NCBI GenBank assembly: GCA_934747965.1
Contig: CAKVHI010000001.1
Span: 65,703-129,702, forward strand
Reading direction: 5' to 3'
Origin: an uncultured Clostridia bacterium
GTDB taxonomy: Bacteria; Bacillota; Clostridia; Christensenellales; UBA1242
Length of the DNA stretch: 64,000 bases
Shown here: piece by piece, positions 10,319 through 63,358 of the stretch
Layout of the letters: each line of letters begins with the position of its first letter
How positions within the stretch are numbered: the first letter of the stretch is position 1
Translations under genes and position numbers: made by a program
Notes under the pieces: model-generated
The model's input: the letters and a program-made list of their open reading frames with translations, nothing else
The model's database searches: none
What the model was told of the DNA's origin: nothing

Positions 10319-11320
10319 CTAAAATTGAAAAATTACATTTAAAACCCACAACAAAACACCACAAACAAGGCTAATTAAAAGCCAATTTATTTTTTTTAAG
10401 CCATTATTTTTTTGCCAAGTTTTGATTTCATTTTGATTTTCAAAACTAATGTTTTTGCTTTCATTTTGTTTGTAAAGATTTGACTGTTTTGCGTTTATTG
10501 TTTCTGTTTTATGAGATTTACAACTAGCACTTTTTAGCCATTTTAAAAGATAAAAAATCATAAAAAGCCCAAACAAAAGCAATGTTACAGCCAAAATGAT
10601 ATAGTTTAAAGACAAGTATTTATAATCAAATAATAGTGGATTAATATAATTTATGATAAGCACAACACTATTATTAACAAAATGAACAAAAATACTTGCA
10701 AAAATGCTTTGAGTGTAAATGACTATAAAAGCCATAATAATTCCAAGAATAAATTGATAAATTGTTTGATGCAAACTTAAATGCATAAGCATGAACATCA
10801 AACTTGAAACCAAAACAGCTTTTGTTTCTCCTTTTTCTTTAAGGCCGTCTAGGATTAAACCTCTAAATAAAAGTTCTTCAGTTATCGGAGCAAAAATCCC
10901 CATAGCAAACAACAAATAAACAAAATTTAAAGGATTTGATATGTCTAGTGGCAAGGTCTGTTGTTTTATGCCAAGAGTTAATAAAAAACTGTCGTAAACA
11001 TTTATTATTGGGCTTATCAAAAACAAGCAACAAAAAGAAATTAAAAGCAAAATTATAATTTGCTTGAAATTTAAACTCTTATGTTTTATTGACTTAAAAG
11101 TCATTTTTTTATGCTTTGTTATTGCTAAATAAATTATTAAAAAAGAAATTTGACTTATAAGTGTTGCAACAATTTTGTAAGCCATTGAATTTTCAAGTTC
11201 GGTTGGTTTAATAAAAAATGACAAAATAATTATGAAAAAAATTGCCAAAATGTTCGGCAAAAACAATGCTAGCATAAAAGAAATTGCACTATCTTTTTGA
11301 TTATATTCGTTTTGCATCAT
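10319..11320 (-). CDS. CPBP family intramembrane glutamic endopeptidase, tandem paralog
   Basis: EELLFRGLI, MHLSLH and HFVNNS motifs. It directly abuts the previous CPBP gene. Confidence 0.75.
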   Translation of the reverse strand: MMQNEYNQKDSAISFMLALFLPNILAIFFIIILSFFIKPTELENSMAYKIVATLISQISFLIIYLAITKHKKMTFKSIKHKSLNFKQIIILLLISFCCLFLISPIINVYDSFLLTLGIKQQTLPLDISNPLNFVYLLFAMGIFAPITEELLFRGLILDGLKEKGETKAVLVSSLMFMLMHLSLHQTIYQFILGIIMAFIVIYTQSIFASIFVHFVNNSVVLIINYINPLLFDYKYLSLNYIILAVTLLLFGLFMIFYLLKWLKSASCKSHKTETINAKQSNLYKQNESKNISFENQNEIKTWQKNNGLKKINWLLISLVCGVLLWVLNVIFQF

Positions 11321-11352
11321 TTTATTATATCATTTTAACAATTATTTTCAAA

Positions 11353-12654
11353 CTAAATATTAATTTTATTTATTAATTTTACAATTTCACTTGTTATATA
11401 TTTTAATTGTAATTTGCTTTCTCCTTCAACCAAAATTCTAATCTTATTTTCCGTTCCACTCATCCTTACAATAATTCTTCCATCAAAATTTTGCTTAAGT
11501 TTGTTTACTAAGTTATTTAATTCTTCACTGTTTTTAATTCTAAGTTTATCTTTAACTTCTAAGTTTGTTGCAAGTTGAGGCATCAAAGTTACATTAAAAA
11601 GTTCTTTTAAGGTTTTGTTTTCTTTTTTCATAACTTCCATTATTTTTATTCCTGCCAAAATGCCGTCTCCTGTTGGTAAAATGTTTTTTATAATTATATG
11701 ACCACTTTGCTCTCCACCCAAAACACCACCAAGCTTGTTAAGTGTTTCAATAACAAACTTATCCCCAACATCACAACGCACAAAATTTATACCCTTTTGC
11801 TTAAGTTTTTTCTCTATTTTCAAGTTTGTTTGTGTTGTTCCAACAACAATATTATTTTTAAGCAAATTTTGCTTTTTAAAAGAATTTGTAAGAATATAAA
11901 CAATCGCATCGCCGTCCAAAACGTTTCCATTTTCATCAACACACAAAACTCTGTCAGCATCTCCATCAAAAGCAAGCCCCAAATTTGCATTCTCGGCTAA
12001 GACTATCTTTTTCAAGCCATCAAGATGCAAACTTCCACAATTTTCGTTAATTTCTCCATTTTTACAGTTGTTTATTGCAACAACTTCGGCACCCAGTTTA
12101 GAAAAAATTTTTGGTGCCAAACAAAAACTTGCACCATTTGCCAAATCAAGAACAACCTTGAGGCCATTGAGTCTAACATCAACATTGCTAATAATGTGGT
12201 CAACATATTTTTTTTGCAAATTTTCTTTAAATCTGTAACGCCCCAAACTAAAATTTGCAACACTACTGGCACCCAAAATATAACTTTCTATTTCTTGTTC
12301 AGTGCTTTCGCTAATCTTTTCTCCTTTTTCGTTAAAGATTTTAATTCCGTTATATTCTTTAGGATTATGTGAAGCCGAGATAACAACGCCATAATCATAA
12401 CCTAGTTTTGAAACCAAGCAAGAAACCACACTTGTTGGAGCAATGCCAATGTCATCAACAATTCCGCCATTTGAAATCGCACCACTCACAAGAGAAAACA
12501 AAATAAGGTCGTTGCTTGGTCGTGTATCTTTGCATATTAAAATTTTAGGGTTTTCTTTAATTTTTGTTAATGCTAAACCGCATTTAAAAGCAAGTTCTGT
12601 TGTTAAGTCTTTTCCAACAACTCCTCTAATTCCGTCTGTTCCAAAATAGACCAC
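11353..12654 (-). CDS. glmM: Phosphoglucosamine mutase
   Basis: FGTDGIRG, active-site ISASHNP, FDGDADR and GGEQSGH motifs. Confidence 0.9.
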   Translation of the reverse strand: MVYFGTDGIRGVVGKDLTTELAFKCGLALTKIKENPKILICKDTRPSNDLILFSLVSGAISNGGIVDDIGIAPTSVVSCLVSKLGYDYGVVISASHNPKEYNGIKIFNEKGEKISESTEQEIESYILGASSVANFSLGRYRFKENLQKKYVDHIISNVDVRLNGLKVVLDLANGASFCLAPKIFSKLGAEVVAINNCKNGEINENCGSLHLDGLKKIVLAENANLGLAFDGDADRVLCVDENGNVLDGDAIVYILTNSFKKQNLLKNNIVVGTTQTNLKIEKKLKQKGINFVRCDVGDKFVIETLNKLGGVLGGEQSGHIIIKNILPTGDGILAGIKIMEVMKKENKTLKELFNVTLMPQLATNLEVKDKLRIKNSEELNNLVNKLKQNFDGRIIVRMSGTENKIRILVEGESKLQLKYITSEIVKLINKINI

Positions 12655-13317
12655 TTATTTATCTTCCTTCTTTATATGAATCTTTTTTTCATCATCTTTG
12701 ATTTTAAGTTCTCTTTTGCTAATCACAAATTTGTTTGCTTCAATGTTTTTGTCGACTGTAGTCCCTGCAGCAATAAATGAATTGTCTCCAACACTCACGG
12801 GTGCAATCAAATTAGAATTACTGCCGATGAAACAATTTTTGCCAACAGTTGTTTTAAATTTTTCTTTACCATTATAGTTACAAAAAATCACACCACAACC
12901 AATATTTGTTTTTTCGCCAATTTCGCTGTCACCAATATAAGCCAAATGACACGCTTTTACGCCATTTTTTATCAAACTTTTTTTAATTTCAACAAAATTC
13001 CCTATTTTTGTATCATTCAGAATTTCAGCCTCTCTGAGTCTTGAAAACGGTCCTATTTGATTGAAAGAGCCTACTGATGAATTAACAAGATAACTAAAAC
13101 TGATTTTGTTGTTTTCGGAAATTTTGCAATCTTTTATAAAATTATTTCCTTCCAAAACGCAATTTTGACCTATAACTGTATTTCCTAATATGGTGTTGTT
13201 AGGATAAATTATTGTATTTTTACCAATTTTGCAAGTTTTGTCTATTATTGTTGAATTTGGATCTAAAATTTGAACACCAATACTTTTAAGATAATTTTCA
13301 AATTCTTTTTCTATCAT
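12655..13317 (-). CDS. Stand-alone GlmU C-terminal-type (GlcN-1-P) acetyltransferase, left-handed beta-helix
   Basis: [26 protein letters not shown]...[11 protein letters not shown]...[22 protein letters not shown]...[14 protein letters not shown] tracks the acetyltransferase domain of GlmU closely. The stop codon directly abuts the glmM start. Confidence 0.75.
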
Positions 13318-13496
13318 AAAAACTTTTATGTTTTAAAAATTAAAATTGTTAATTAAAAATTATTGGAAAGTGAAAAGAATAAGTTTTTTTAGTTAATTCA
13401 TAATGTTTGTTTGTGAAAAATTGATAACTATGTTATGATTATATATAGACAAATAAAAGAATATTAAAAATAATTATTCATAAAATAGATTATATT

Positions 13497-14480
13497 ATGA
13501 CAAACAAAGATGAGATTTTAAAAAAGGAAGAGGATGTTAAAAACAAAGAATTTAAAAATATAAACAAACTTGAACAAATCGAAATAAAAAAAGAAGAAAA
13601 TCTTGCAAAATTAAACGAAACTAATGTGAAACAAGGCAAAAACATTGAAATTGAAAGTTTTGTAACACTTGACAACACCACAAAAAAAGGTAAGATATTA
13701 AGATTTATAATTGTTTGTTTAGTTTTTTCCATGATTATTTTAGGAATCTATTTAGCCCTAAAATTTACCGGAACACTAGATAAACTTGAAAGCTTGGAAG
13801 ACATAAAAAAACTGATTTTGTCTGGCGGAAATTTTAGTTTGATTGTTTTTGTTATAATTCAATTTTTGCAAGTAACAATTCTTCCAATACCAGCATTTTT
13901 AACAACGGTTGCTGGCGCTATAATTTTTGGACCATTAATCACATTCATTTTAAGTTTCGTTTCAATTCTGCTTGGAAGTTTGTTTGCTTTTTGGCTTGGA
14001 CGAAAATTTGGAAAGCGTATTTTAATTTGGACAGTTGGAAAAGAAGATGCACAAAAATGGACCAAAAAATTAACGAATGGAAAATATGCCTTTTTTTTGA
14101 TGATGCTTTTCCCTGCCTTTCCTGATGACATCTTATGCATGGCGGCGGGCGTTACAAACATGAGTTGGAAATTTTTTACGATAACCAACCTAATCACAAG
14201 ACCAATAGGAATTTTCTGCATTTGTTATCTTGGAAGCGGAACACTTCTTCCGTATGAAGGGTATTATTTAATAGCTTGGGCTTTTATTCTGATTTTGCTA
14301 GTAACTTTGTTTGTTTTAAGCATAAAATATCAGGGCAAAATAGAAAAATTTGTTGACAAAATTAACAATAAAATTACAAAGAGAAATAAAGTTAAAAAAA
14401 CAATACCAAAAATAGAAAATTTGAATTTAAGCGATGGCGAAAACGAAAATGAAAGCACAAAAAATGAAGAAAAAAATTAA
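13497..14480 (+). CDS. TVP38/TMEM64 (DedA/SNARE-associated) family membrane protein
   Basis: VTILPIPAFLTTVAGAIIFGP and FPAFPDDILCMAAG motifs. It has a charged N-terminal extension, so the true start could be internal. Confidence 0.7.
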   Translation: MTNKDEILKKEEDVKNKEFKNINKLEQIEIKKEENLAKLNETNVKQGKNIEIESFVTLDNTTKKGKILRFIIVCLVFSMIILGIYLALKFTGTLDKLESLEDIKKLILSGGNFSLIVFVIIQFLQVTILPIPAFLTTVAGAIIFGPLITFILSFVSILLGSLFAFWLGRKFGKRILIWTVGKEDAQKWTKKLTNGKYAFFLMMLFPAFPDDILCMAAGVTNMSWKFFTITNLITRPIGIFCICYLGSGTLLPYEGYYLIAWAFILILLVTLFVLSIKYQGKIEKFVDKINNKITKRNKVKKTIPKIENLNLSDGENENESTKNEEKN

Positions 14481-14587
14481 TTTTGACTTTTTGATCGAAA
14501 AGCATGTTAAATTATGTCATCGTATTCGTTTTGCTAAAATATGATTTTTAAGTTGCAAAAAATAAAATTACAATATATAATCTTAAT

Positions 14588-15571
14588 ATGATTACATATT
14601 TAGTTACAGGTGGATTAGGATTTATTGGAAGCCACTACATTGATAGCATTATTGAGGACAAGAAAAATTTTGTTATAAACCTAGACAAACAGACATACTC
14701 AAGCAATATCGACAGATTTTTGTTTAACAAAAATTATAAGTTTGTTTTGGGCGATATTTGTGATGAAGAATTAGTTGAATCTATTTTTAAAAAATATGAC
14801 ATAGATTATGTTTTAAATTTCGCAGCTGAAAGTCATGTGGATAACAGTTATAACAATTTTTACACTTTTGTTAAAACTAATGTTTTGGGAACAGCAAATT
14901 TGCTCAGCATATCTCAAAAATATTGGAAAAACAAAAAAAATAAGCGTTTTATTCAAATTTCAACAGATGAAGTTTATGGACCTAACAAACAAGATAACGA
15001 GTTTTTTGAAACAGACGAAGTCAATCCAACTTCTCCTTACGCAACAACTAAAGCATCGGCTGAAATGCTTGTTAAAAATTTTGTTTTTAACTTTGACTTC
15101 CCTGCCATCATCACTCGAAGTTCAAATAATTTTGGAAGTTATCAACATAAAGAAAAATTAATTCCAAAAACCTTTTTAAGTTGCTATCAAAAATCGAAAA
15201 TTTCGCTATACAAAAACAGCAGGCTTCACAAAAGAAATTGGCTTTATGTTAAAGACAATGTTAATGCAATTAACCTTGTTTTGAAAAATGGAAATGTGGG
15301 CGAAATTTACAATATTTGTTCTGATGACGAGTTTACTAACCTTGATATGATTGAAAAAATTATTAACTATTGCAACGAAAATGTTGATGAAAATATAAGC
15401 AATAAATTAATAAAACTTGAAAACTCAAGACCTTTAGACGATGAAAGGTACAAAATAAATTGTGATAAAATAAAAAAACTTGGTTTTAGACAAACAGATT
15501 TTGAAAAAAATTTTAAACACACCTTAAACTTTTATAAAAACAATATTGATAATTTAGTAAACAGAAAATAA
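14588..15571 (+). CDS. dTDP-glucose 4,6-dehydratase-like NAD-dependent sugar dehydratase/epimerase
   Basis: Rossmann motif TGGLGFIGSH, ESHVDNS, and the catalytic Y-x3-K in YATTKASAE. Confidence 0.75.
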   Translation: MITYLVTGGLGFIGSHYIDSIIEDKKNFVINLDKQTYSSNIDRFLFNKNYKFVLGDICDEELVESIFKKYDIDYVLNFAAESHVDNSYNNFYTFVKTNVLGTANLLSISQKYWKNKKNKRFIQISTDEVYGPNKQDNEFFETDEVNPTSPYATTKASAEMLVKNFVFNFDFPAIITRSSNNFGSYQHKEKLIPKTFLSCYQKSKISLYKNSRLHKRNWLYVKDNVNAINLVLKNGNVGEIYNICSDDEFTNLDMIEKIINYCNENVDENISNKLIKLENSRPLDDERYKINCDKIKKLGFRQTDFEKNFKHTLNFYKNNIDNLVNRK

Positions 15572-49684: not shown

Positions 49685-50767
49685 ATGGCAACAAAAAGAA
49701 GTGTTAAAAATCAAAAATATGAAAATTATTGGAAATTAACCTTGGAATATTCTGATATATTTGGAGAACAATTTAATAACGTTCTTCAAATTATGGTTGA
49801 TTTTATTGATACATATAAACTATATGAAAATGAATTAACAAAAGAATTATATAGTAGGTTACAAGAAAAGGTATATCATGTATATCCTAAAGCAGATATG
49901 GGTTCCACTCGAAAATCGCTTAATCAATTTGTAAAATTGGGCTTTATTGAACCTCAATTAAAAGGATATCATAAATTAACTAAACAATTTATAAAAGAAA
50001 CCAATAAAGAGAAAAAACAAGATTTATTTTCAAGAATCGTATATGAAAATTCTAAATTTAATTCCGCAATAACAGAATTTGATAATATAAGACAAGTCAA
50101 TTTTCTTATAAAAACATTAGCATATAGTGGACCGTTGAATGAAGAAGATTTATGTGCATTAATATCTTTAAAGGATATATCAAATATCGGAAAGGGTTTT
50201 TTAACTAGAGAAGAATTAGAGACACAAAAAAGATTTGTTTTAGCAACAGGTTTTGATGATAGAAAATATAATCAAAAAAGGTATCTTTATGGTATAGCTA
50301 AAAGATTAACAGGAGTGTTTTGCAGAAATAGAATTTTATCATTAGATTCAGATAATCTTCCTGACACTGAAGAATTAAAAAGTAGAGACCCTTATTTACA
50401 TTCTCTATATAAGAAAGCATTAAAAGATGAAGCAAAGACAATTTTTGGAAAAGTTGTTTGTGATTTTGAACAAATTGAACATACATCTTATGTCGCTTCC
50501 CATATTAAACCATTCCATGAAAGTTCACCCGAAGAACAATACAATGTAAATAATGGTTTTCTATTCTCAAGGGATATAGATATCTTATTTGATAAATTTG
50601 ATTTAACTTTTGATACAAACGGAATTCCTATATGGGGTAAAAGAGTATCAAAAGAACTTCAAGACAAATATAAAAATTATAAAATAGACAACCGGTTGCT
50701 TAATCCAGAACGATTAGAATTCCTTAAAATACATAATAGTAAGTTTTATGAAAAAAATAAGAGTTAA
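49685..50767 (+). CDS. HNH-family restriction endonuclease (putative type II/IIS R subunit)
   Basis: The C-terminal HNH_2-like motif SHIKPFHES...NVNNGFLFSRDIDILFDKF. It is convergent with two DNA methyltransferase genes. Confidence 0.65.
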   Translation: MATKRSVKNQKYENYWKLTLEYSDIFGEQFNNVLQIMVDFIDTYKLYENELTKELYSRLQEKVYHVYPKADMGSTRKSLNQFVKLGFIEPQLKGYHKLTKQFIKETNKEKKQDLFSRIVYENSKFNSAITEFDNIRQVNFLIKTLAYSGPLNEEDLCALISLKDISNIGKGFLTREELETQKRFVLATGFDDRKYNQKRYLYGIAKRLTGVFCRNRILSLDSDNLPDTEELKSRDPYLHSLYKKALKDEAKTIFGKVVCDFEQIEHTSYVASHIKPFHESSPEEQYNVNNGFLFSRDIDILFDKFDLTFDTNGIPIWGKRVSKELQDKYKNYKIDNRLLNPERLEFLKIHNSKFYEKNKS

Positions 50768-50773
50768 TAACTC

Positions 50774-51784
50774 TTATTTTTTTGTCTTCAATATTAGTAA
50801 TTGCTCTATTGTTGTATTTTTATTTATTTTATTAGTTACTTTATATTGGTGCTCTTTTTCAAAAATTTTTGTTTCTCCGAATACTTGAATAGCTTGTTCA
50901 ATTTCTTGTATAGATGGAGATGTTTTATTATTCAAACTTATGACTATATAATCTGTTTTCGGGACACATTCTTTGATAAGTTTTACGAAATTATCAAGAA
51001 ACTTTTCATTTTGCGATAGATTTATATAATTAATTTCTTTATTAAAAATTTTATCGTATATTCCATAAAACTCGCCATATTTGTTCATTGTTTTAGGATA
51101 AGGTGGATCCATATAAATTATATCTACATTATTTTTAAGTGTTTTAATAAAATCATACGAATCCATGTGATAACTTTTGTTATTCTTAGTATTATCAAAA
51201 ATACTTTGATTGTAATTTTCTAAATCAGCAATCATTAAACTTTCAAAAGATTTATTATGATATGCTCTTTTTCTTCCATATTTTTCATAACTATATTTTT
51301 CATCTCTTAATTTTTGTATTTGATTCCATGGAACATTCATTCTTGAATATGGAAGTTTTCTAATCATGGATCTTCTGATAAGAGCAAGAAATAATGATTT
51401 TTGATAATCCTTTAATTTTTCAGATATTATTATTAATTTTGCCAGTTCCTCGACTTCATAATCATAGTAAAGAATGTTTGTTAAGTATTTAGATATTTCA
51501 TTGTATTTTTTAGAAATTTCATTGTCTGAAATTTTTATATCAAAAACATCTTTATTTAGAGTGTCTTTCGAATTTTCTATTATTGCTTTGCTTAAGATAT
51601 AATTGCTATATAAACAATCGTTAGAAATAACTGAAAAATGTTGTTTTTTAAGTGCATAAGACACAGATGAACCACCAGAAAACAAATCAACAACAGTTCC
51701 AGTTTTAATCGGCATGTTTGAAATAATCCAATCAACTAACTTTGATTTATTTCCAATATAATTGATTTTAGGATAATTTACCAT
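50774..51784 (-). CDS. D12-class (Dam-like) N6-adenine DNA methyltransferase
   Basis: NYIGNKSKLVDWI, DLFSGGSSV and the catalytic motif MDPPYPKT. Confidence 0.8.
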   Translation of the reverse strand: MVNYPKINYIGNKSKLVDWIISNMPIKTGTVVDLFSGGSSVSYALKKQHFSVISNDCLYSNYILSKAIIENSKDTLNKDVFDIKISDNEISKKYNEISKYLTNILYYDYEVEELAKLIIISEKLKDYQKSLFLALIRRSMIRKLPYSRMNVPWNQIQKLRDEKYSYEKYGRKRAYHNKSFESLMIADLENYNQSIFDNTKNNKSYHMDSYDFIKTLKNNVDIIYMDPPYPKTMNKYGEFYGIYDKIFNKEINYINLSQNEKFLDNFVKLIKECVPKTDYIVISLNNKTSPSIQEIEQAIQVFGETKIFEKEHQYKVTNKINKNTTIEQLLILKTKK

Positions 51785-52766
51785 TTAAAGCCTCCTTTAT
51801 TTTTAGTGCTAATTCATATGCAAGATTTGGTGGTACCGCATTCCCAATTGCTTGTTGTATTTTACCATTATTCCCAACAAAAGTAAAGTTATCTGGGAAT
51901 GTTTGAATTCGTGCCAATTCTCTGTTTGTCAATGCTCTATTTTGATTGTAGTGAAAAACTTTTCTCATGTCTCCTGTTATGCATATAGAAGGTTTTTTAC
52001 TATTATATCTTATATATTTTCTCGCATCTCCAGATTTGGGCCTTATTTCTAATGGAATGTCGTTTCTATCTCCGCCGTCTTTAACGTATTGCATTTTTTC
52101 AAGCATTTGTTTTGAATGATTCATTGCTGAATGATTTGGAATTAAACTTTTCTCTCCACTTTTTAGGGGAGGTAAATCTCCGATAGCTTCTTCTATGCTA
52201 ATAAATTTATTATTTTCAATTGGAAACTCAAAATTATTTTTATCTTTTGCTCCAACTAGAACAATTCGTCTTCTTTCTTGCGGAACATTGTAAAATTTAC
52301 TATTCAAAACTTTATGCTTAATTTCATATCCCAATTTTTTAAATTCTTCTTTTATTATTTCTAATGTTTTGCCCTTATTATGCTTTTCCATAGCTGCAAC
52401 ATTTTCTAATAAAAACATTTTGGGTTGAATAATTTTTACAAAACGAACAAATTCTTTAAATAAGTTGTTCCTTGGGTCATCAATAAAAGTTCTTCCTATG
52501 TTCCCAGCAATTGAGAACCCTTGGCATGGAGGCCCTCCAATAATTATATCTACTTTAGTATCTCCAATTATTGACCTAATCTCGCTTTCATCTATTTCTT
52601 TAATGTCCTTACATAGCATTCTATGATTTTTAAAATTAAGAGAATAATTTTCAGCAAACACTTTATCATATTCTACAGCAAATAAATTTTGGAATCCAGC
52701 ATTATTAAACCCTAAACTTAACCCCCCAACACCTGCAAATAAATCAATATAATTTAATTTACCCAT
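51768..52766 (-). CDS. DNA (cytosine-5)-methyltransferase
   Basis: DLFAGVGGLSLGF (I), GGPPCQGFS (IV), LLENV (VI), QERRR (VIII) and AIGNAVPP (X). The start is taken at MGKLNYIDLF. Confidence 0.9.
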   Translation of the reverse strand: MGKLNYIDLFAGVGGLSLGFNNAGFQNLFAVEYDKVFAENYSLNFKNHRMLCKDIKEIDESEIRSIIGDTKVDIIIGGPPCQGFSIAGNIGRTFIDDPRNNLFKEFVRFVKIIQPKMFLLENVAAMEKHNKGKTLEIIKEEFKKLGYEIKHKVLNSKFYNVPQERRRIVLVGAKDKNNFEFPIENNKFISIEEAIGDLPPLKSGEKSLIPNHSAMNHSKQMLEKMQYVKDGGDRNDIPLEIRPKSGDARKYIRYNSKKPSICITGDMRKVFHYNQNRALTNRELARIQTFPDNFTFVGNNGKIQQAIGNAVPPNLAYELALKIKEALNGKLS

Positions 52767-52989
52767 TGTCTGCTCCTTTTTCTTCAAATTCCATAATTTC
52801 ACTAGGTTGGCATTTTAAATAACTACATAATTTACCAATTGTGTCGGTTGTAACACTTTTATTTGTTCCAAGATTTGCAAGTGTTGCACTGGATATTCCT
52901 GTTTCATTGATTATATCTTTTATTTTAATCTTTCGTCTTTTGATATAATCATAAAATTTATAATACACAATCAAAATATGATCCTCCAA
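52759..52989 (-). CDS. Small XRE-type HTH protein heading the methylase operon (possible controller protein)
   Basis: IKDIINETGISSATLANLGTNKSVTTDTIGKLCSYL. The gene has an 8-nt overlap with the m5C methylase start. The true start is probably a TTG/GTG a few codons inside the ORF, after the GGAGGA RBS. Confidence 0.65.
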   Translation of the reverse strand: MEDHILIVYYKFYDYIKRRKIKIKDIINETGISSATLANLGTNKSVTTDTIGKLCSYLKCQPSEIMEFEEKGADNG

Positions 52990-54056: not shown

Positions 54057-54611
54057 TGCAAAAACTAAAACTTGAATTTGAAAACGAACTAGATTTAACA
54101 CTGCTAGACAACGAATTTTTTGTTGCAATGTTAAATCAGATTATGTTGTTCAAAAAATGCGAGGTGCAGTATGGACTATCCCAAAACTAAAATATATTAT
54201 GATGGTAGTCATTTTATTGGAATACCACCTGAAAAACAAATATGGAAGAAATGAAAAAATACAAAATCAAAACAAAAAAAAGAAACGCAAGAAAAAGTTA
54301 AAGAGTTATACAAATCTGAAACTGGGACAAAGAAAGAAAAAACTGAAAAAGTGATTGAAAAGATAAATGAAGAAATTAAGGATGAAGAAAAAGCGAAAGA
54401 GATTGTTAAAGCAACTTTAGAAAAGGAAAAGAGAAATAAAATTATTAGACTTACGAGATTGTATAGGAAAATTGGCCTGCAACAATGGACACACTTTTGC
54501 ACTTTTACTTATGACGGAAATAAACTAACCGAAGAAGAATTTAGAAATAAACTACTTACTTGTTTAAGGCATTTATCTCATAGAAAAGGCTGGAAATATA
54601 TTGGAGTATAA
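54057..54611 (+). pseudogene. Frameshifted and 3'-truncated replication-initiator-like gene
   Basis: Three consecutive frames read MQKLKLEFENE..., MDYPKTKIYYDGSHFIGIPPEKQIWKK* and ...LQQWTHFCTFTYDGNKLTEEEF...KGWKYIGV*. HFCTFTYD resembles RCR/HUH motif 1 (FxTLTY). No downstream HUH motif is present. Confidence 0.4.
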
Positions 54612-55277
54612 AAATTAAGAGAAATAGTTTTAAAAAATCCGACAACAGACATACCGACCGATGCCATTGGAGTTTATCTTCAATTACCAAACTTTGCTAA
54701 TCAATATAGTTTTGATGTTGATAACAAAAAAATCTCTTTTTCTAAAACCATTGGTGAAATGATAAATCAAGAAAATTCAGGGTTAAATAATATGTTGTTG
54801 ATACCAGGTGTGTATAAGTATTTTGAAGAAATTGGTTATGCAACTTCTTTTAAAAGAGCAAAGTATATGTTGACTCCAGATATGTTTTCAAGAATTTATA
54901 AAGGTGCTTTGGGTGAAGCTGTTGGTGAGTTTATATTAAGAAATAGGAATATACAACTTGAAAGGATTCGAGATGTAACTCGATATGAAAAATTTGATTT
55001 TTATGTTAAAAATACATATATAGATTTTAAAAATTTCTCAGGATATATGGACTTGCAAAGGAATGTCGAGGTGGAGAAAATTAAAAATAAACTAAAAGAG
55101 TGTAATGGGAAAAATGCTGTAATAATTAATATTTTGAAGCCAAAAGATACAAATCCAGAAATGTATATAGATAATATTGATGGAAATGTTGTAATAATTC
55201 CATATTTATATGACATTGAAAAACAAGAATTCAATAACAAAGCATTAATATTATTAAAAAAATTAATTGATTTATAA
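54612..55277 (+). pseudogene. C-terminal remnant of a PD-(D/E)xK-like protein (ATG-initiated ORF 54759..55277)
   Basis: The frame is open from 54612 with no upstream ATG. GALGEAVGEF...EKFDFYVKNTYIDFKNF looks like an E...D...D-x-K nuclease core. Confidence 0.3.
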
Positions 55278-55380: not shown

Positions 55381-56865
55381 TTATATGAAAATGCTGATAT
55401 TCCTAGCAATTATCTCAGTTTTACACTTTGTTATATATTTTTTTACATATTCTCGTTTCGCCACCAAATCAAAAGATTTATATTCAACATTATAAGGATT
55501 TTCCAAATATATTTCAATATTTTGGTCATCAATAAAAATTTTCTTCACCAAGCAATACGCAAAATTGATTCCATTAAGTGTAAGTGATTTTTGAAAGAAT
55601 TTTCTAATATATGGTTTTGTATGTCTAATATTGTCCTTATTATTTTCCAAATATATAATCGCTTTTAGTTCCCTTATTCTATTTTCTAACACTTTAATTC
55701 TATCGTTGGTTGTTTCAGTGTATATTCCATTTTCAACAGCTTTAACTAAATTATTCAAAGATACCTCACATCTTTGTTTTTCGTATTCACTAGATTTTAC
55801 CAAATTTATATTTTTCTTTTGTTTATTTTTATTTAATAAAGTCATGGCGACAGTTTCAATATTTGTTTCATCTAAAATGAAAGACTTAATAAAAGAAGTT
55901 AAATAATCTTCTAAAATATTTTTTCTGTATGTTATTGCGTCGCAAGTATGATGTCTCTGTCTTTGAGAACATTTGTAATATCTATGAACTTTGTTGCCTT
56001 TTGAAGTTCCACTATCTGCAAAATATACACTGCCACAATTTTTACAAAATATCTTGCCTTTATAGTGATATGGTTCTAAATCACTTTTTCCATATCTATT
56101 CAATTCCAAAATTCTATTTGCTTTTACATATATTGCTTTGTCTATAATTGGTGGATAAACATCACAATAATATTCACCCTTGCACAAATACTTACCTGTG
56201 TAATATTCTTGCTTTAAAATATGATACACATGTTTTTCGTTAAATTTTTGATTACTTTTATACAATACTTTTTTCTTGTTTAATTTTTTGGCAATGTCTT
56301 TGCCAATAGTTCCCAAAGAATATTCTTTAAAAACAAATTTAACTATTTTCGCTTCTTCTTCATTCACTTCAAGTTTATGATTTATATTGTTATATCCATA
56401 AGGACGAACTCCGCCTTGATAATTACCTTTAAGTCTAGTTTCTCGCATACCTCGTTTAACTTTTTGAGATAATTCGGCAGAGTAGTATTGATTAAGTCCC
56501 TCAAGTAAACTCTCTAAAATAATTTCCTCAGGTGTGTCAGGGATATTTTCCATAGCTGAAATTACACTAATACCTTTATCTCTCAAACTTTTCTTGTGAA
56601 TGACCGACTCGTATTTATTTCTACTAAATCTATCAAATTTATACACCAAAACATAGTCCCATTTCTTATTGTTGCTATCCTTTAACATTTTCTTAAAGTC
56701 GGGTCGGTTGTCTGTCGTTCCAGAAATTGCTCTGTCTATGTAATTACCCACAATTTTTATGTCGTGTTTTTCAGCGTACTCATTACAAACTCTTAGTTGT
56801 CCTTCAATACTTTGTTCTGTTTGGTTGTCGCAAGAATATCTTGCATAAATTACTGCATTCTTCAT
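55381..56865 (-). CDS. Large serine recombinase (resolvase/invertase N-domain + recombinase domain + zinc ribbon)
   Basis: AVIYARYSCDNQ (catalytic Ser), DRFSRN, and the zinc ribbon CKNCGS...YYKCS; 494 aa. Confidence 0.9.
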   Translation of the reverse strand: MKNAVIYARYSCDNQTEQSIEGQLRVCNEYAEKHDIKIVGNYIDRAISGTTDNRPDFKKMLKDSNNKKWDYVLVYKFDRFSRNKYESVIHKKSLRDKGISVISAMENIPDTPEEIILESLLEGLNQYYSAELSQKVKRGMRETRLKGNYQGGVRPYGYNNINHKLEVNEEEAKIVKFVFKEYSLGTIGKDIAKKLNKKKVLYKSNQKFNEKHVYHILKQEYYTGKYLCKGEYYCDVYPPIIDKAIYVKANRILELNRYGKSDLEPYHYKGKIFCKNCGSVYFADSGTSKGNKVHRYYKCSQRQRHHTCDAITYRKNILEDYLTSFIKSFILDETNIETVAMTLLNKNKQKKNINLVKSSEYEKQRCEVSLNNLVKAVENGIYTETTNDRIKVLENRIRELKAIIYLENNKDNIRHTKPYIRKFFQKSLTLNGINFAYCLVKKIFIDDQNIEIYLENPYNVEYKSFDLVAKREYVKKYITKCKTEIIARNISIFI

Positions 56866-56974
56866 TTGTTATTTCTCCTCATATAATATTTAGGTGTAAA
56901 AAACCTAAAAAAATTATATTATTTTCAAACAAAACAATAAAATAATTTAAAATATTCCATTTTTATTTAATCTA

Positions 56975-56983
56975 TGATATAAT
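56975..56983 (+). promoter_or_regulatory. Extended -10 promoter element for the pAgo operon
   Basis: TGATATAAT (TATAAT at 56978-83), then the GAGGTG RBS (56990-95) and the ATG at 57000. Confidence 0.45.
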
Positions 56984-56999
56984 ATATTTGAGGTGTGGT

Positions 57000-58979
57000 A
57001 TGAATGGTACATTTTTAAATTTTTTGGAAATTTTTATTGATAAAGATGAGTTTGAAATTTCAGCTTGTGATTATGTAGATAAAAATTGGTATAATAATCT
57101 GAAGAATACATATAATAATTTGCAATTTTTAAAAGATAGTGAAAACTCATTAGTATATGTATGGGCAAAAGATTTTTCATCATCAATATATTTAGGAAAT
57201 AATAAAATAAAGAAAGTTATAGTTTCAAAATATAAAAATGCAAATCTTATAGCACGCATCATAGAATGCTGCATAAATAATTTGTTTAGACAAAACAATT
57301 ATCACACATACCTAGAAAAATATTCTTCATCCAATATTGTAGTTAATAATAAACAACTTTTCTTAGGAAATAAAGACTTGCTTGTAAATAGGTCAATTAG
57401 TTTTAACATATCGTTTGTGAATATAAATCAAGAAATAAAATTTTACATAGTTTTAGACACAAGACTAAATAAAAAATTTTTAATTGGAGCAAACGAAGCA
57501 ATCAAGAAAGGAATTAATATAGAACAACGATGGATAAAAGATGATAAAATCATAGCAAATGAACATTCTATTTTAAGATATTTACAAAACAAGGGTTTGG
57601 AAAAAGAATTCACTAGCCTTATTAAAGAACAAACATCTGAGAATATGTCTTACAAAGTTATTAAAAAAACTTTAAATTTTATAAAAGATAATTTACAAAA
57701 CAAGAAATTGAATTCTTTTTCAATTTCGTTCAGTAATTTAACAAATTTGCCATATAGTTCATCATTTTTTAATATAGAGCAATTGCAATCACCCAAACGA
57801 TATTTTTTTGAAGATAAGCCACAAATGGACAATCGATTTTATCAAAATAATCTTAAAGATTTAAAGCCAACTTCTTATGGCTCTTTAAATCAAAAAATTA
57901 AAATAGCAGTTATTGTTCCGGCATCATATTTAGGAATTACCGAAGAATTTTTACTAAAATTGAAGAATAATATCAAGTTATTAATGCATATTCCAGATAT
58001 TGACTATGAGATATTAAAATGTTTTTCTAATAGTTATGATGATTATAAAAAAGCACTAGATGACAATATCAACTCATTGAACAATGTACAAATGGCGATT
58101 ATAATTGTGTCAGAAGAAATGAAATCTTTAAAAGTTCAAGAATCTCCTTACTTCTATTGTAAAGCTAAATTTTTAGGAAGAGGAATTTCAACTCAAGAAA
58201 TAAGAGTGGAAAGTATCAAAAGATTAAATGATTTTATTTTGAATAATATAACTCTTAATATTTATGCAAAAATAGGAGGAACACCTTGGACTATTGAGTC
58301 AATAGGTGGAATAAAAGATGAATATATTTTTGGAATTTCCTCATCATCAGATTTCGATAAAACTAAAATAATAGGATTTGCTAATGTATTTAACTATTCT
58401 GGGGCATATTGTACTGGTGATTGTACATCATTATGCAATGTTTCAGAATACAAATCGAATTTCAAGTGCATCATAAAAAAACAGATGGATCAAATAATTA
58501 AATCTGAATCAAAACAAGTAAGATTAATATTTCATTTGTTTAAGTCGCCTTCAAATGATATAGAAATTGCTGCATTACAAGAAATTATTAACGAGTATAA
58601 AGATATTGATATTGACTATTGTTTTATCAAAGCAAGTTTTATACATAATTATCGTTTATTTGAAAACGAGGGTTTGGACAATGTTAAATCTGGCAAATGC
58701 ATATTTATTAGTAATAATCAAGCACTCGTTTCATTTACAAAAAATATACCGGCTTATATTGTTGTGGATAAGCGCTCGACATTTAATGATTTGTATTATA
58801 TATGTAAACAAATATATTATTTTTCTCACCTATCCGTGAGAGGATTTAAACCATCATATAAATCTGTAACACTATTATACCCGCAATTAATGATGAGATT
58901 ATTAGTGAAATTAAAAGAAATTCCTGGCTGGGATTACGACTCTTTAAAATCAATCGAGGATAAATTATGGTTTGTATAA
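57000..58979 (+). CDS. Prokaryotic Argonaute (MID + PIWI with a ~300-aa N-terminal region), apparently catalytically inactive
   Basis: MID 5'-end pocket pattern Y-K-Q-K in SPYFYCKAKFLGRGISTQEIRVESIKRL; PIWI signature LNIYAKIGGTPWTI; C-terminal DKLWFV. GISSS occupies the place of the G-x-D-V catalytic strand and HLFK the place of R-D-G. Confidence 0.8.
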   Translation: MNGTFLNFLEIFIDKDEFEISACDYVDKNWYNNLKNTYNNLQFLKDSENSLVYVWAKDFSSSIYLGNNKIKKVIVSKYKNANLIARIIECCINNLFRQNNYHTYLEKYSSSNIVVNNKQLFLGNKDLLVNRSISFNISFVNINQEIKFYIVLDTRLNKKFLIGANEAIKKGINIEQRWIKDDKIIANEHSILRYLQNKGLEKEFTSLIKEQTSENMSYKVIKKTLNFIKDNLQNKKLNSFSISFSNLTNLPYSSSFFNIEQLQSPKRYFFEDKPQMDNRFYQNNLKDLKPTSYGSLNQKIKIAVIVPASYLGITEEFLLKLKNNIKLLMHIPDIDYEILKCFSNSYDDYKKALDDNINSLNNVQMAIIIVSEEMKSLKVQESPYFYCKAKFLGRGISTQEIRVESIKRLNDFILNNITLNIYAKIGGTPWTIESIGGIKDEYIFGISSSSDFDKTKIIGFANVFNYSGAYCTGDCTSLCNVSEYKSNFKCIIKKQMDQIIKSESKQVRLIFHLFKSPSNDIEIAALQEIINEYKDIDIDYCFIKASFIHNYRLFENEGLDNVKSGKCIFISNNQALVSFTKNIPAYIVVDKRSTFNDLYYICKQIYYFSHLSVRGFKPSYKSVTLLYPQLMMRLLVKLKEIPGWDYDSLKSIEDKLWFV

Positions 58980-60007
58980 TAGAATTAGTTAAAAAGTTGC
59001 GGGATAGTCTATTGTGTCAAACAAATATTGATACTGTTTTCTATTTGTTTTATAATAAAAAAGAACCAACCGAAATTCCATTTATTAGCAATCAAAATGA
59101 TTTAATATCTCGAATTGCATTTAAAGGATATTCTAAAGAAGTGGATGAAGCTTTTAATGTAAATACTATAGATTCAGGTCATACACAAAATAATTATTGC
59201 AACAAATTTATACAATGTATAGGAATAAGACTTTATACTAATGCAAATTACGAAATAATATTATCTGATTTTAAGAGATTTGATATAAAGAGAAAATATG
59301 TTATGGCTCAAATATTTCCTCATTTACTTGACGAGTTGATGAAAGTTTTATTAGATGACAATACCATTGAAGCATCTTTTATTAAATTGCTTGTATGTAA
59401 AGAGACAGACTCATCAAAGATTCAAAAATTAGAATATGATTATATAATTTCGGCAAGCAATACGGATATAATAGACTTAATAATATTAGAGAATTATATA
59501 AAATTATATGGGTTCTCTTCTTTAGTAAATTATGATCAAAAGTCTCTTATTATAGATATACTAAAAAATTTTTCAAATAGCATAAAGCATATTACAAAAG
59601 ACAGAATGAAAGGAAAATCGCTTTTTGAAATACGAGATGAATATGATGTTCAAGATATATTGTATACAATTATTCAATCCATATTCCCTAAATGTGAAAA
59701 AGAAGATCCTTGTTCAAAAGATCCACAAGGATTGTCTCATAGAATTGATTTGGTATTACATGATTTAGGTATTTATATTGAAGTCAAAATGATAAAGGAT
59801 CAAGACAAAGATAAAGTTAAAAATTTTAAACATCAAATTGAAGAAGATATAGTAGGATATTCGGTAAATAAAGATTTAAAGCATTTGATTTTTTTTACAT
59901 ATGATCCGAATGGATATGTGGATAATGAACAACATTTTAAAGAAAGTCAATCGGAAGTGAAAAATAATGGAATAACATATTCTGTTGATAAAGTATACCA
60001 AAAATAA
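58967..60007 (+). CDS. pAgo-associated protein with a C-terminal PD-(D/E)xK nuclease motif
   Basis: A 13-nt overlap with the pAgo stop. EIRDEYDVQDILYTII...HRIDLVLHDLGIYIEVKMIK (E...D...E-x-K). The N-terminal ~200 aa are unrecognised. Confidence 0.6.
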   Translation: MVCIIELVKKLRDSLLCQTNIDTVFYLFYNKKEPTEIPFISNQNDLISRIAFKGYSKEVDEAFNVNTIDSGHTQNNYCNKFIQCIGIRLYTNANYEIILSDFKRFDIKRKYVMAQIFPHLLDELMKVLLDDNTIEASFIKLLVCKETDSSKIQKLEYDYIISASNTDIIDLIILENYIKLYGFSSLVNYDQKSLIIDILKNFSNSIKHITKDRMKGKSLFEIRDEYDVQDILYTIIQSIFPKCEKEDPCSKDPQGLSHRIDLVLHDLGIYIEVKMIKDQDKDKVKNFKHQIEEDIVGYSVNKDLKHLIFFTYDPNGYVDNEQHFKESQSEVKNNGITYSVDKVYQK

Positions 60008-60110
60008 TTATGGCTTTTATTAGGTATCATCCATCGAATAAGTAAATGAATAATATAAAAATTCTATAATGGCATTGGAGAAATAATGACGCAATCTGAA
60101 AAAATATGTA

Positions 60111-60755
60111 ATGAAATTGGCTCAAGATTTTTTTGCAAAGATTTTTGTTTACGAAAATCTAAAATATTTTAATGAAAGTAATAATAAAGTCGAGTTGTGC
60201 GATGGTTTATTTGAATATGCTGGTACTTATATCGCCTTGCAAATAAAAGAACGAAATAAAACAAATTGTTTAAATGATGATTTGTGGTTGGAAAATACAG
60301 TATATAAGTCCGCCGTTTCGCAAATTGAGGAAACGATAAAAGGAATACAGAATAATAATGTTTGTGTTAACGATTTATATCATCAACCAGTAGAACTAAA
60401 TAAAGATTATTTAATATATGCCGTAATTATTTTTGATAATCAAAATATAAAACAATATAAAAAAGTAGTAGAATGTAGTAATTGTAAAATTAATATTTTT
60501 TCACTATCTGATTATAAAATAATGATGGAGACAATAATGCATCCATATGACATTTTGGGCTATCTTTATCAAAGATTGAATATTGGAGTACCTTCCTTAT
60601 TTATAGGTGAAGGAAATTTAACTACTGTAATTTCTAAAATTTCAACTGAAGAAGATTTCGCCAACAGTTTTGCAATATTTCTTGATAATGAATCTAAAAA
60701 TTCAAGACATGATGCATTAAAATTAATGGCTTTAATAAATACAAGACAAATTTGA
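60111..60755 (+). CDS. Putative second PD-(D/E)xK-like protein of the pAgo operon
   Basis: ELCDGLFEYAGTYIALQIKERNK (D...Q-x-K) near the N-terminus. A better RBS and ATG lie at 60086 in another frame (see findings). Confidence 0.4.
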   Translation: MKLAQDFFAKIFVYENLKYFNESNNKVELCDGLFEYAGTYIALQIKERNKTNCLNDDLWLENTVYKSAVSQIEETIKGIQNNNVCVNDLYHQPVELNKDYLIYAVIIFDNQNIKQYKKVVECSNCKINIFSLSDYKIMMETIMHPYDILGYLYQRLNIGVPSLFIGEGNLTTVISKISTEEDFANSFAIFLDNESKNSRHDALKLMALINTRQI

Positions 60756-61201
60756 TTAAAAGTACACCTAATTATAAAGAAATATTAAAAATTTTGCAAT
60801 TATTAAAACCAGAGTGTGCTGCTGATTTTATGGAAAGATTTTGGTATGCATGGAAACAATCTTGCGAAAATAAATTTGACTTATCAAAAAATATTTTGCA
60901 CGTAACTGATAAGAACGAAAGAATAGGAATAACTTTTTTCTCAGTTGGAACAAAACCTTTTGATAATTTAAGATACTACGAAATATTATGCGATGCTAAA
61001 CAATTGCAACATAAACTTGATATTGTCTTAATAATTGGTTTTATAGGTGCAATGAATAATACTTGTCAAATTGATTGGATATATTTTAAAAAAGATTTTA
61101 TAGATGATATAAATGTACTTAATTTTTATAATGAAATAAATATGTTTAACGGAATTGATCGAGAGAATTATGAAGATTTAGCAAAAAAACTTTTAAACTA
61201 A
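60752..61201 (+). CDS. Hypothetical protein, fourth gene of the pAgo operon
   Basis: A TTG start overlaps the upstream stop by 4 nt. No recognisable motif. A terminator follows. Confidence 0.35.
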   Translation: MIKSTPNYKEILKILQLLKPECAADFMERFWYAWKQSCENKFDLSKNILHVTDKNERIGITFFSVGTKPFDNLRYYEILCDAKQLQHKLDIVLIIGFIGAMNNTCQIDWIYFKKDFIDDINVLNFYNEINMFNGIDRENYEDLAKKLLN

Positions 61202-61318
61202 TTACACGATATCTCCTTATATATTGCTTTTGTTTGTGTCTTTGTAGCATAGTTTTCGTATAAATCAACGGAATAAAATATTGCTTAAGCATTTAAAAAT
61301 ATCTAAATAAATCTCATA

Positions 61319-61349
61319 AGACTAGGTTTTACAACCTGGTCTTTTTTTT
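61319..61349 (+). terminator. Rho-independent terminator after the pAgo operon
   Basis: AGACTAGGTT (61319-28) pairs with AACCTGGTCT (61333-42), with one G-U pair, followed by T8. Confidence 0.65.
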
Positions 61350-61486
61350 GTGTCTAATTGATTTCAAAGACAATTTTTTATTCTTTTTCGTTGATTTCTA
61401 CAACTTGTATGAAAGGAATATTATTTTTGCCAAACAATGCTACTTTGCCCCTGCCAAAAGGCGAAATATATAAGGAGGTTTAAAGT

Positions 61487-61744
61487 ATGAAAACAGAAGA
61501 AAACGAAATCAAAAACTACTACTTACAAGAGTTTTCTCTATTTGATGGTGAGTATGATGTTACATTTAACATTTTAGATGTAAACACCGACAAAATGACT
61601 ATCACTGTTGCAGTTACCAAAGCTGGAAAGATTTATGTAACTGAATACGACTTGAAAAGAGATAGAGAGCAAGATTTGTATTTTCAATATGGCATAGAAA
61701 ATACACAAGTTAATGTAAATGATTTTGAAACTATTGAAGATTAA
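61487..61744 (+). CDS. Hypothetical small acidic protein (ICE leading region)
   Basis: An AAGGAGG RBS and an 85-aa ORF. Confidence 0.45.
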   Translation: MKTEENEIKNYYLQEFSLFDGEYDVTFNILDVNTDKMTITVAVTKAGKIYVTEYDLKRDREQDLYFQYGIENTQVNVNDFETIED

Positions 61745-61767: not shown

Positions 61768-62310
61768 ATGAGTAATATTAGTATTGTAATTGGTTCTTGG
61801 GGTTCATACAATGAATGTAATGAAAGAGCTTTAGGAAGCAAATGGTTAGATTTAGAAGATTTTGATACTTATGAAGAAATCGAAGATGAACTAACAAAAC
61901 AAGGTTTTGAACTTGATGGCATTGATGAAGAACTTTTTATACAAGACATTGATGGTATTGAAGCAGAAGATATGAATTGTGATTATATCCATCCAAAAGA
62001 TTTATTTGAATTATTAACAGAAGCAGATGTTATTAGTAATGACTACAATTACGAAATGATGTCTGCTTTTTTAGAAGTTCGCACTTGGGAAGATTTTAAA
62101 AATAGATTTAATAATTGTGGCTCAAACTGGCGTGATGATATCTACTTATACAAAGATACAGATTGGTACGACTTAGAATACAACTTAATGCACGAATGCT
62201 ATCAAATACCAGATTATTTAGACAACTATATTGACTATGAAAGATATGCTAATGATTTAAGATATGATGGTTTTGAAGAATATAGTGAAGGAATTATTGA
62301 AATTAGATAA
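61768..62310 (+). CDS. ardA: ArdA-family antirestriction protein
   Basis: A highly acidic protein. The C-terminal YLDNYIDYERYANDLRYDGFEEYSEGIIEI parallels the conserved ArdA tail (Tn916 Orf18-like). Confidence 0.8.
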   Translation: MSNISIVIGSWGSYNECNERALGSKWLDLEDFDTYEEIEDELTKQGFELDGIDEELFIQDIDGIEAEDMNCDYIHPKDLFELLTEADVISNDYNYEMMSAFLEVRTWEDFKNRFNNCGSNWRDDIYLYKDTDWYDLEYNLMHECYQIPDYLDNYIDYERYANDLRYDGFEEYSEGIIEIR

Positions 62311-62752: not shown

Positions 62753-63021
62753 TGGATAAATTAGAAGAATTAAAAAGATATATAGACTATGAATTTTCAT
62801 CTGGTTGTTACACTGTAGAATTTATTAAAGGTGGAACTGAAAACAAATATGTATATATTTCAATTAGTGATGTTAGGTATTTTAGCAATGACTGGTATAA
62901 TCATATCTTGATTAGAACAGCAAAAAACGAAGTAGATTACAAAGGTGGTTTTAACCACTACACCACACTAGATAGACTTGAAGGTGATGTTTGTAAACTA
63001 CTCAACGAACTACCATTTTAG
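62752..63021 (+). CDS. Hypothetical protein (ICE leading region)
   Basis: An AAGGAGG RBS with the ATG overlapping the upstream stop (TAATG). Confidence 0.45.
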   Translation: MDKLEELKRYIDYEFSSGCYTVEFIKGGTENKYVYISISDVRYFSNDWYNHILIRTAKNEVDYKGGFNHYTTLDRLEGDVCKLLNELPF

Positions 63022-63031
63022 GAGAAATTAT

Positions 63032-63358
63032 ATGATTAAATTAAACTTAGAAACTAAAACAAAAGAACAAGAACTCATTAAGCAATATTTAGAAGAAAAT
63101 GTTAGTGAAACTTTGGCAAGCAAAATAAACAATGGTGTTAAGTTGATTAAGGAAAATAAAACCTTAATCAACAAAAAGACATTGCAAGGGTTTATGAACT
63201 ATGCCAATCAAGAAGCAAGGAAACTTGCTGAAAAAGGTGCAAATTGTGCTTGTATTGAAGATAAAGTTGTATATGGTTGGGCTATTCATTATTTTGAAGA
63301 AGATAGTTTAGAAGGCAATCTTTACAATGAAGATGGAACTGATATCCAGATGTTGTAG
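63032..63358 (+). CDS. PcfK-like / AcrIIA9-family-like protein
   Basis: An AGGAGA RBS. KQYLEENVSETLASKINNG...ARKLAEKGANCACIEDKVVYGWAIHYFEEDS follows the PcfK-like pattern (..YL.E.A....a......A.k........ed.vYGwA.HY..ED). Confidence 0.45.
   Translation: MIKLNLETKTKEQELIKQYLEENVSETLASKINNGVKLIKENKTLINKKTLQGFMNYANQEARKLAEKGANCACIEDKVVYGWAIHYFEEDSLEGNLYNEDGTDIQML

Follow-up and report, generated by a model that had tools for sequence, protein, structure and literature searches.

A predicted BPAN-type Argonaute-nuclease cassette abutting a disrupted mobile-element gene in an uncultured Clostridia bacterium

Among prokaryotic Argonautes (pAgos), those of the long-B group are without exception inactive; their PAZ domain is usually shortened and the YK motif is almost always present (PMC6299218). 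A system in which a long-B pAgo is paired with the nuclease bAgaN was named BPAN in 2023 and combines RNA-guided DNA recognition with collateral DNA degradation and abortive infection (Song et al., PMC10620215). The activated complex of the Escherichia coli representative, EcBPAN, is an 8:8 assembly (Liu et al. 2026, PMC13535254; PDB 23wq). Residues D298/E309-K311 of EcbAgaN are essential, its N-terminal domain holds the dimer in an auto-inhibited state and engages the pAgo, and the tetrad positions of the partner EcAgo are G492, Q568, and D700 (PMC13535254). Here, a locus at positions 56975-61349 of a 64,000-nucleotide (nt) stretch of contig CAKVHI010000001.1 (the window), from an uncultured Clostridia bacterium (GCA_934747965.1), is compared with these systems. 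The original prediction, made from the letters of the window, saw a four-gene operon that could not be assigned to any described pAgo subtype. Its first two genes do correspond to a named subtype, the long-B pAgo-bAgaN pair BPAN of 2023, for which structure 23wq is available. The interval 56948-60007 is best read, with a probability of about 0.88, as a self-contained two-gene BPAN cassette comprising a promoter, an inactive long-B pAgo, and a translationally coupled bAgaN, with a collateral-DNase mechanism predicted by homology. The result has little import for new biology; it adds a divergent, compact (659 amino acids, aa) BPAN cassette from a low-G+C gut Clostridia-like bacterium, located on an element that resembles an integrative and conjugative element (ICE).

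Like EcBPAN, the cassette is a simple operon in which the pAgo precedes the nuclease, with an inactive PIWI domain (tetrad positions non-Asp, as reported) and a two-domain effector that joins an N-terminal domain to a PD-(D/E)xK domain with identical D-x10-EVK spacing; the best PDB sequence matches of both proteins are chains of 23wq. It differs from EcBPAN in the length of the pAgo (659 aa versus 731 in EcAgo), in the residues at the tetrad positions (S/F/Q versus G/Q/D), and in its setting, a Clostridia-like low-G+C gut host and an ICE-like carrier, with the cassette terminator lost. RsAgo from Rhodobacter sphaeroides (PDB 5awh/6d8p) is the best full-length structural match and shares the YKQK pocket, the inactive PIWI, and the shortened PAZ. 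Most work on RsAgo, however, has treated it as a protein that binds DNA under RNA guidance on its own, whereas for the pAgo described here the conserved bAgaN gene that overlaps it suggests that the output is activation of an effector. A mechanistic parallel is offered by SPARDA (short pAgo plus DREN/DUF4365-APAZ), in which pairing of guide and target is likewise sensed by an inactive Argonaute and releases a collateral PD-(D/E)xK DNase, with abortive infection as the result. In contrast to the full-length protein of this locus, short pAgos are devoid of the N and PAZ regions and their effector carries APAZ; a PADLOC scan gave no APAZ profile match here, the partner being of the og_15 / Helical-REase type.

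The Argonaute and its nuclease partner

Gene 1 is covered over its full length by the PADLOC pAgo profile PDLC02395 (1-656/656, E 1.2e-171) and is also matched by pAgo_II (E 4.4e-84), whose designation 'Class II' is read here as long-B. The best PDB sequence matches are EcAgo of 23wq (E 3.6e-33), RsAgo (E 2e-25), and AfAgo, the MID-PIWI part aligning to both EcAgo and RsAgo, and an AlphaFold2 model (mean predicted local distance difference test score, pLDDT, 70) matches RsAgo along the whole length (Foldseek E 7.8e-31). As modelled, the protein is a 'long' Argonaute with an N-terminal lobe, MID, and PIWI, in which the PAZ region is short and poorly modelled. The 'PAZ-poor' look noticed earlier is typical rather than odd, because long-B pAgos usually have a shortened PAZ (PMC6299218). 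Membership of long-B is suggested by the best profile and structure matches (pAgo_II, EcAgo, and RsAgo, all long-B). All close relatives, 659-661 aa in length, start at an ATG equivalent to that at 57000, which is therefore taken as the start of the gene in preference to the upstream TTG.

The 5'-phosphate pocket of the MID domain, Y384/K388/Q399/K424, is invariant among 12 aligned relatives and aligns to the PY..K / TQ / YAK motifs of RsAgo. Residues S447, F514, and Q629 align to G492/Q568/D700 of EcAgo; Asp occupies these three tetrad columns in none of the 12 relatives, and an acidic residue, E483, is retained beside the glutamate-finger position. Judged from the alignment, the PIWI domain is without the DEDX tetrad and is predicted to be catalytically inactive, with no slicing. 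The MID and PIWI signatures that had been picked out by eye (NIYAKIGGTPWTI, GISSS, HLFK, and LWFV) are present as described, and the by-eye call of an inactive PIWI holds, with no Asp at the tetrad positions of gene 1 or its relatives. Two further pAgo-like proteins of 577-582 aa (P0033 and P0034), 38% identical to the pAgo of the window over about two-thirds of its length, carry a precomputed PF00078 (reverse transcriptase) match, which may reflect a real fusion or be spurious.

Gene 2 was matched by the Pfam family DpnII-MboI (E 1.8e-27) and by the PADLOC profile Aga_Helical-REase (Class II; E 1.2e-23). Its best PDB sequence match is EcbAgaN of 23wq (E 9.3e-6), with the RIDL and EVK motifs aligned: D261-x10-E272-V273-K274 of the C-terminal PD-(D/E)xK domain lines up at the same spacing with D298/E309-V310-K311 of EcbAgaN. 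The N-terminal domain is recognised by no profile; it matches the bAgaN N-terminal domain in position, which is helical by family name and in EcbAgaN. The earlier description of gene 2 as an E...D...EVK (RIDL...EVK) nuclease core behind an unrecognised N-terminal region of about 200 aa was thus accurate, and is now joined by the DpnII-MboI and Helical-REase matches; the view of it as a PD-(D/E)xK partner of the pAgo with a non-catalytic N-terminal domain is likewise borne out.

By analogy with the E. coli system, the guide type, complex assembly, collateral DNase activity, and abortive infection can be proposed as follows. The dead pAgo would take up small guide RNAs with a 5' phosphate, bind them in the YKQK pocket of its MID domain, and find complementary DNA of an invading plasmid or phage. 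Once bound to guide and target, it would draw in auto-inhibited bAgaN dimers through their N-terminal domains, and the resulting higher-order assembly would turn on the D-EVK PD-(D/E)xK nuclease domains. Indiscriminate DNA degradation by bAgaN would then kill or arrest the invaded cell, amounting to abortive infection or plasmid exclusion.

Aside from plain restriction-endonuclease-like partners, other C-terminal effectors were encountered in overlapping genes downstream of some long-B pAgo relatives: SEFIR/TIR in the Tundrisphaera plasmid pTA3_3, a CHAT protease-like one in a Pyrinomonadaceae metagenome-assembled genome (MAG), and, in a Deltaproteobacteria MAG, a fusion of DpnII-MboI with a PNP_UDP_1 phosphorylase (L047 7242-8630, L087 7371-8717, and L073 7386-9539). 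The TIR and CHAT partners have the N-terminal motif NLDEVFAAWLL in common, suggestive of a single adaptor domain whose effectors have been exchanged. Full-length Bacteroidota relatives of the pAgo, 25-29% identical, are followed by an overlapping partner of 383-390 aa that matched neither Pfam nor the bAgaN profile (L038 7806-8975, L041 8016-9170, L044 8010-9161, and L045 3261-4409); it may be a divergent or a different effector.

Two modules at one junction

The count of four genes does not hold: open reading frames (ORFs) 3 and 4 are pieces of a single gene of about 375 aa, referred to as X375, that is split by frameshifts, and their 4-nt overlap is consequently a frameshift artefact. Homologues of gene 3 are mostly single proteins of 373-375 aa (relatives range from 341 to 396 aa), and the closest, P0002, is 75% identical over gene 3 and 78% over gene 4 (residues 224-372). 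Relative to the intact gene of L001, the interval 60086-61204 has one additional T at 60142 and lacks 4 nt at 60735, besides two in-frame 3-nt indels. The native ATG at 60086, preceded by GGAG, encodes MTQSEKICNEIGSRFFCKDF as in the relatives and is out of frame after 28 codons. The same sequence is present in contigs L009 and L010, and contigs from ENA and Logan, which cover 8.3 kb and 5.5 kb of the window, agree with it at 100% of positions, those of the frameshifts among them. Since these contigs are identical and the second indel is no homopolymer slip, the lesions are taken as real, and this copy is probably a pseudogene, inactivated by the two frameshifts. It is very unlikely that they are assembly or sequencing errors in a gene that is intact in the real genome (and would still be unrelated to BPAN). 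The first indel does fall in a T-run, and the three records with X375 sequence may come from one sample, but the lesions recur exactly in the Logan contig and in that from ENA, apparently a short-read assembly to judge by its k141 name, a 4-nt deletion is not a homopolymer slip, and the adjoining pAgo and bAgaN genes, equally A+T- and homopolymer-rich, are intact. Programmed frameshifting was considered as a cause of the split and is also unlikely, given the 4-nt deletion and a T-run of only 5 T.

Comparison of the window with the fetched loci by blastn resolved two clean homology blocks, 56948-60007 and 60086-61744. The first aligns with the cassettes of L011-L015, beginning 50 nt before the pAgo ATG and ending exactly at the bAgaN stop; the second aligns with L001-L004, beginning at the ATG of X375 and taking in the small gene that follows. 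Relatives of the pAgo were collected at 85 distinct loci, 80 in species-representative genomes and five others from metagenomes. At 61 of the 80 genome loci the ORF immediately downstream, in the same orientation, is bAgaN-like, and next to pAgo relatives with 78, 71, 68, 37, and 32% identity a DpnII-MboI gene follows with the 13-nt overlap kept, then unrelated genes. An X375 relative was sought within 6 kb of the pAgo relatives at the 80 genome loci and found at none of them, nor at any of the five metagenome loci (0/85). Neither pAgo nor bAgaN is near X375 in any of five other settings (L001-4, L005-8, L018-20, L021-22, and L103), where it occupies the edges of integrative elements, beside integrases or PcfJ/PcfK-type leading-region genes. 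A single-protein metagenome scan had contributed one of these loci (L103), and two viral-contig scans for further X375 loci found none. Gene 2 is therefore syntenic with pAgo relatives and genes 3 and 4 are not: the pAgo-bAgaN cassette and X375 are separately inherited modules that abut at a unique 78-nt spacer. The suggestion of two nuclease partners for the pAgo is rejected on the same synteny (X375 at 0/85 loci).

Cassettes related to the first block adjoin recombinases too, namely tyrosine integrases (L011-L013) and a small resolvase (L017), and BPAN cassettes thus travel as promoter-to-terminator two-gene units parked beside recombinases. The present one has landed between the serine recombinase of such an ICE-like element and the unrelated edge gene X375, which comes immediately after it. 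In two of the relatives (L012 8845-8956 and L013 9994-10107), where a tyrosine integrase gene closely precedes the pAgo, the cassette closes with its own hairpin/T-run terminator and borders on a tRNA-Arg(CCT) gene; these cassettes therefore occupy the tRNA-proximal end of integrated islands.

The columns of the extended -10 element (T-TG-n-TATAAT) are invariant between the window and L011, L012, and L013, whose cassettes are 70-76% identical in DNA. The promoter is accepted because of this conservation and not because of a generic promoter scan, which performed at chance (51 sites versus 51.8 expected in shuffles). At the other end, a conserved GC hairpin with a T-run stands directly 3' of the bAgaN stop in the same three relatives. 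No terminator-like site was found in the corresponding spacer of the window, 60008-60085, which contains a TATAAT (60066-60071) and a GGAG (60076-60079) ahead of ATG 60086 and which had no match in JGI metagenomes. In contrast to its close relatives, the window copy has lost the cassette's own terminator. The hairpin at 61318, the sole terminator-like site between 56000 and 62500, lies in the second homology block and is part of the mobile-element module rather than of the BPAN cassette. Of the single promoter-to-terminator unit first proposed, the extended -10 and the hairpin are there, and the unit of four genes is not.

The reading of all four ORFs as one guide-triggered multi-effector pAgo system, with gene 3 as a second nuclease-like protein and gene 4 as an accessory, is barely credible on this evidence. 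The ORFs are indeed closely spaced on one strand, the only terminator-like site comes after the fourth, and gene 3 has a conserved E..D..QxK motif on a PD-(D/E)xK-like predicted fold. However, genes 3 and 4 are one gene with two frameshifts whose start linked to a ribosome-binding site (RBS) gives a stub of 28 aa, X375 accompanies no pAgo relative at 85 loci and occurs without pAgo in five other settings, the DNA homology breaks into two independently inherited modules at the spacer, and transcription in the relatives ends right after bAgaN. With BPAN already named, a broken gene behind it, and synteny at 0/85 loci, the multi-effector reading is unsupported. As a caution, two neighbouring ORFs on one strand that overlap by 4 nt can turn out to be the two parts of a single frameshifted gene, and seeming 'extra components' of a defence system call for a synteny test.

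Several observations weigh against the assignment of 56948-60007 to a functional BPAN cassette. The similarity to EcBPAN is remote, the pAgo aligning over MID-PIWI only and bAgaN over the nuclease domain only, and the activity of this 659-aa subfamily is predicted from EcBPAN. In length the pAgo falls about 70 aa short of EcAgo, and the stretch between its N and MID domains is modelled with low confidence, residues 248-296 having pLDDT below 50; guide preference and stoichiometry may therefore differ from those of EcBPAN. Because the cassette terminator is lost in the window copy, read-through to the 61318 hairpin is possible, and BPAN may be co-transcribed with the downstream fragments. A Pfam search of gene 1 returned no Piwi or MID match at E <= 1. 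This last result was not counted against an Argonaute, because the PADLOC, PDB, and fold matches are overwhelming and close relatives carry precomputed PF02171 (Piwi) matches.

The family of the broken gene

An exhaustive profile search (E <= 0.001) placed X375 in a family of at least 383 cluster representatives, typically single chains of 340-396 aa. Nothing above curated thresholds was found for it in Pfam, PADLOC, or NCBIfam, and a profile search against PDB sequences gave no match. In 71 diverse members, D39, K54, W68, Y160, and R164 do not vary at all, and conservation is almost complete at E5, E36, Q52, and R56; D39 and K54, with the near-invariant E36 and Q52, establish the ELCD...LQIK motif as real and conserved, and the core first noticed in gene 3 (given there with ALQIK) is accordingly present. 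The AlphaFold model of P0002 (pLDDT 83, predicted template modelling score, pTM, 0.81) consists of an N-terminal alpha-beta-beta-beta-alpha-beta domain and a second, C-terminal alpha/beta domain of about 150 additional aa, and its order of secondary structure fits a PD-(D/E)xK core in which Gln replaces the canonical D/E. Foldseek matches of the model are weak and all to PD-(D/E)xK proteins (Cas4 SSO0001, the best at E 2.8e-3, McrC, ACE1, and Hjc), as are profile matches of individual members to PDC-M29B (9/71), SduA_C (2/71), and NERD (1/71). With NERD, Shedu SduA_C, and PDC-M29B the family would share a predicted PD-(D/E)xK-like core, with conserved E5, D39, and Q52-x-K54; it differs from them by the Gln in place of D/E, the C-terminal domain of about 150 aa, and its occurrence as a solo gene at element edges. 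X375 is probably a nuclease-like cargo gene of mobile elements. As an uncharacterised nuclease-like family at the edges of integrative elements, it may merit its own study.

It is unlikely that the fragments work apart from BPAN, the 214-aa and 149-aa ORFs rebuilding a split nuclease-like defence or exclusion protein through read-through and coupling. Both long ORFs are open and 75-78% identical to intact relatives, the equivalents of D39/Q52/K54 (ELCD...LQIK) are kept in the 214-aa ORF, and the 4-nt overlap could permit coupling. The first frameshift, however, cuts off the native start, the RBS, and the near-invariant E5 of helix 1; ATG 60111 of the 214-aa ORF has no evident RBS, the other family members are single chains, and a conserved split at the same position is unsupported. 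A very slim chance is given to the further idea that terminator loss fused BPAN transcriptionally to the X375 remnants and that the 214-aa and 149-aa products were recruited to modulate the BPAN response or add to it, creating a very recent, lineage-specific pAgo system of three to four components, or, in a milder form, that intact X375 is a new single-gene nuclease-type defence or exclusion factor marking the edges of integrative elements.

A relative of X375 from a JGI metagenome, 59% identical, is also split into two ORFs that overlap, at another site near residues 50-70 (L103 3272-4416), which hints that the family is often pseudogenised or that this contig contains an error. Elsewhere, X375 sits at the very edge of integrative elements beside one or two tyrosine integrases (L005 8001-9862 and L018 6001-8554), and in L005-L008 a 244-aa ORF without known function starts 3 nt downstream and may be a partner.

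Surroundings of the locus

The positions of the features are collected in Table 1. Adjacent ORFs overlap by 13 nt (pAgo/bAgaN) and by 4 nt (ORF 3/ORF 4), and the pAgo cassette and the downstream gene both have a G+C content of about 25%, the window having 28.7%. PcfJ, GmrSD, and DNA methylases come just past the 3' end of the window. The locus had been placed correctly as cargo of an ICE-like element, flanked by a large serine recombinase on one side and a leading region of the ArdA/PcfK type on the other.

Table 1. Features of the locus and its flanks (window coordinates).
Feature	Positions	Strand	Remarks
Large serine recombinase	55381-56865	-	494 aa (Resolvase + Recombinase + Zn_ribbon_recom); upstream of the cassette
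Extended -10, TGaTATAAT	56975-56983	+	read directly; conserved in related cassettes
RBS, GAGGTG	56990-56995	+	ahead of ATG 57000
ORF 1, predicted long-B pAgo	57000-58979 (ATG; TTG alternative 56988)	+	659 aa
ORF 2, bAgaN nuclease	58967-60007	+	
Junction spacer	60008-60085	+	78 nt between two unrelated modules
X375, disrupted copy	60086-61201	+	single-chain relatives; mapped indels
X375, N-terminal stub	60086-60172	+	28 aa; native ATG reading frame
ORF 3, X375 piece	60111-60755	+	214 aa
ORF 4, X375 piece	60752-61201	+	149 aa
Terminator-like hairpin	61318-61343, T-run to 61349	+	11 bp, 4 G-C pairs; in the 60086-61744 homology block
ArdA	61768-62310		downstream of the broken gene
PcfK-like gene	62978-63358		downstream

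Contig L009, which continues the 3' end of the window, encodes at 9800-15054 a GmrSD_N protein, a 491-aa unknown protein, and two C5 DNA methylases. These genes lie past the leading-region genes, and the element is therefore one with much defence and anti-defence cargo. At 49685-52802 of the window, some kb before the recombinase on its upstream side, an HNH_2 endonuclease (plus strand) lies beside a D12-class adenine methyltransferase and a C5 cytosine methyltransferase (minus strand), a cluster that is restriction-modification-like. Between this cluster and the recombinase, at 54351-55277, are two small plus-strand ORFs of 86 and 172 aa with no Pfam match.

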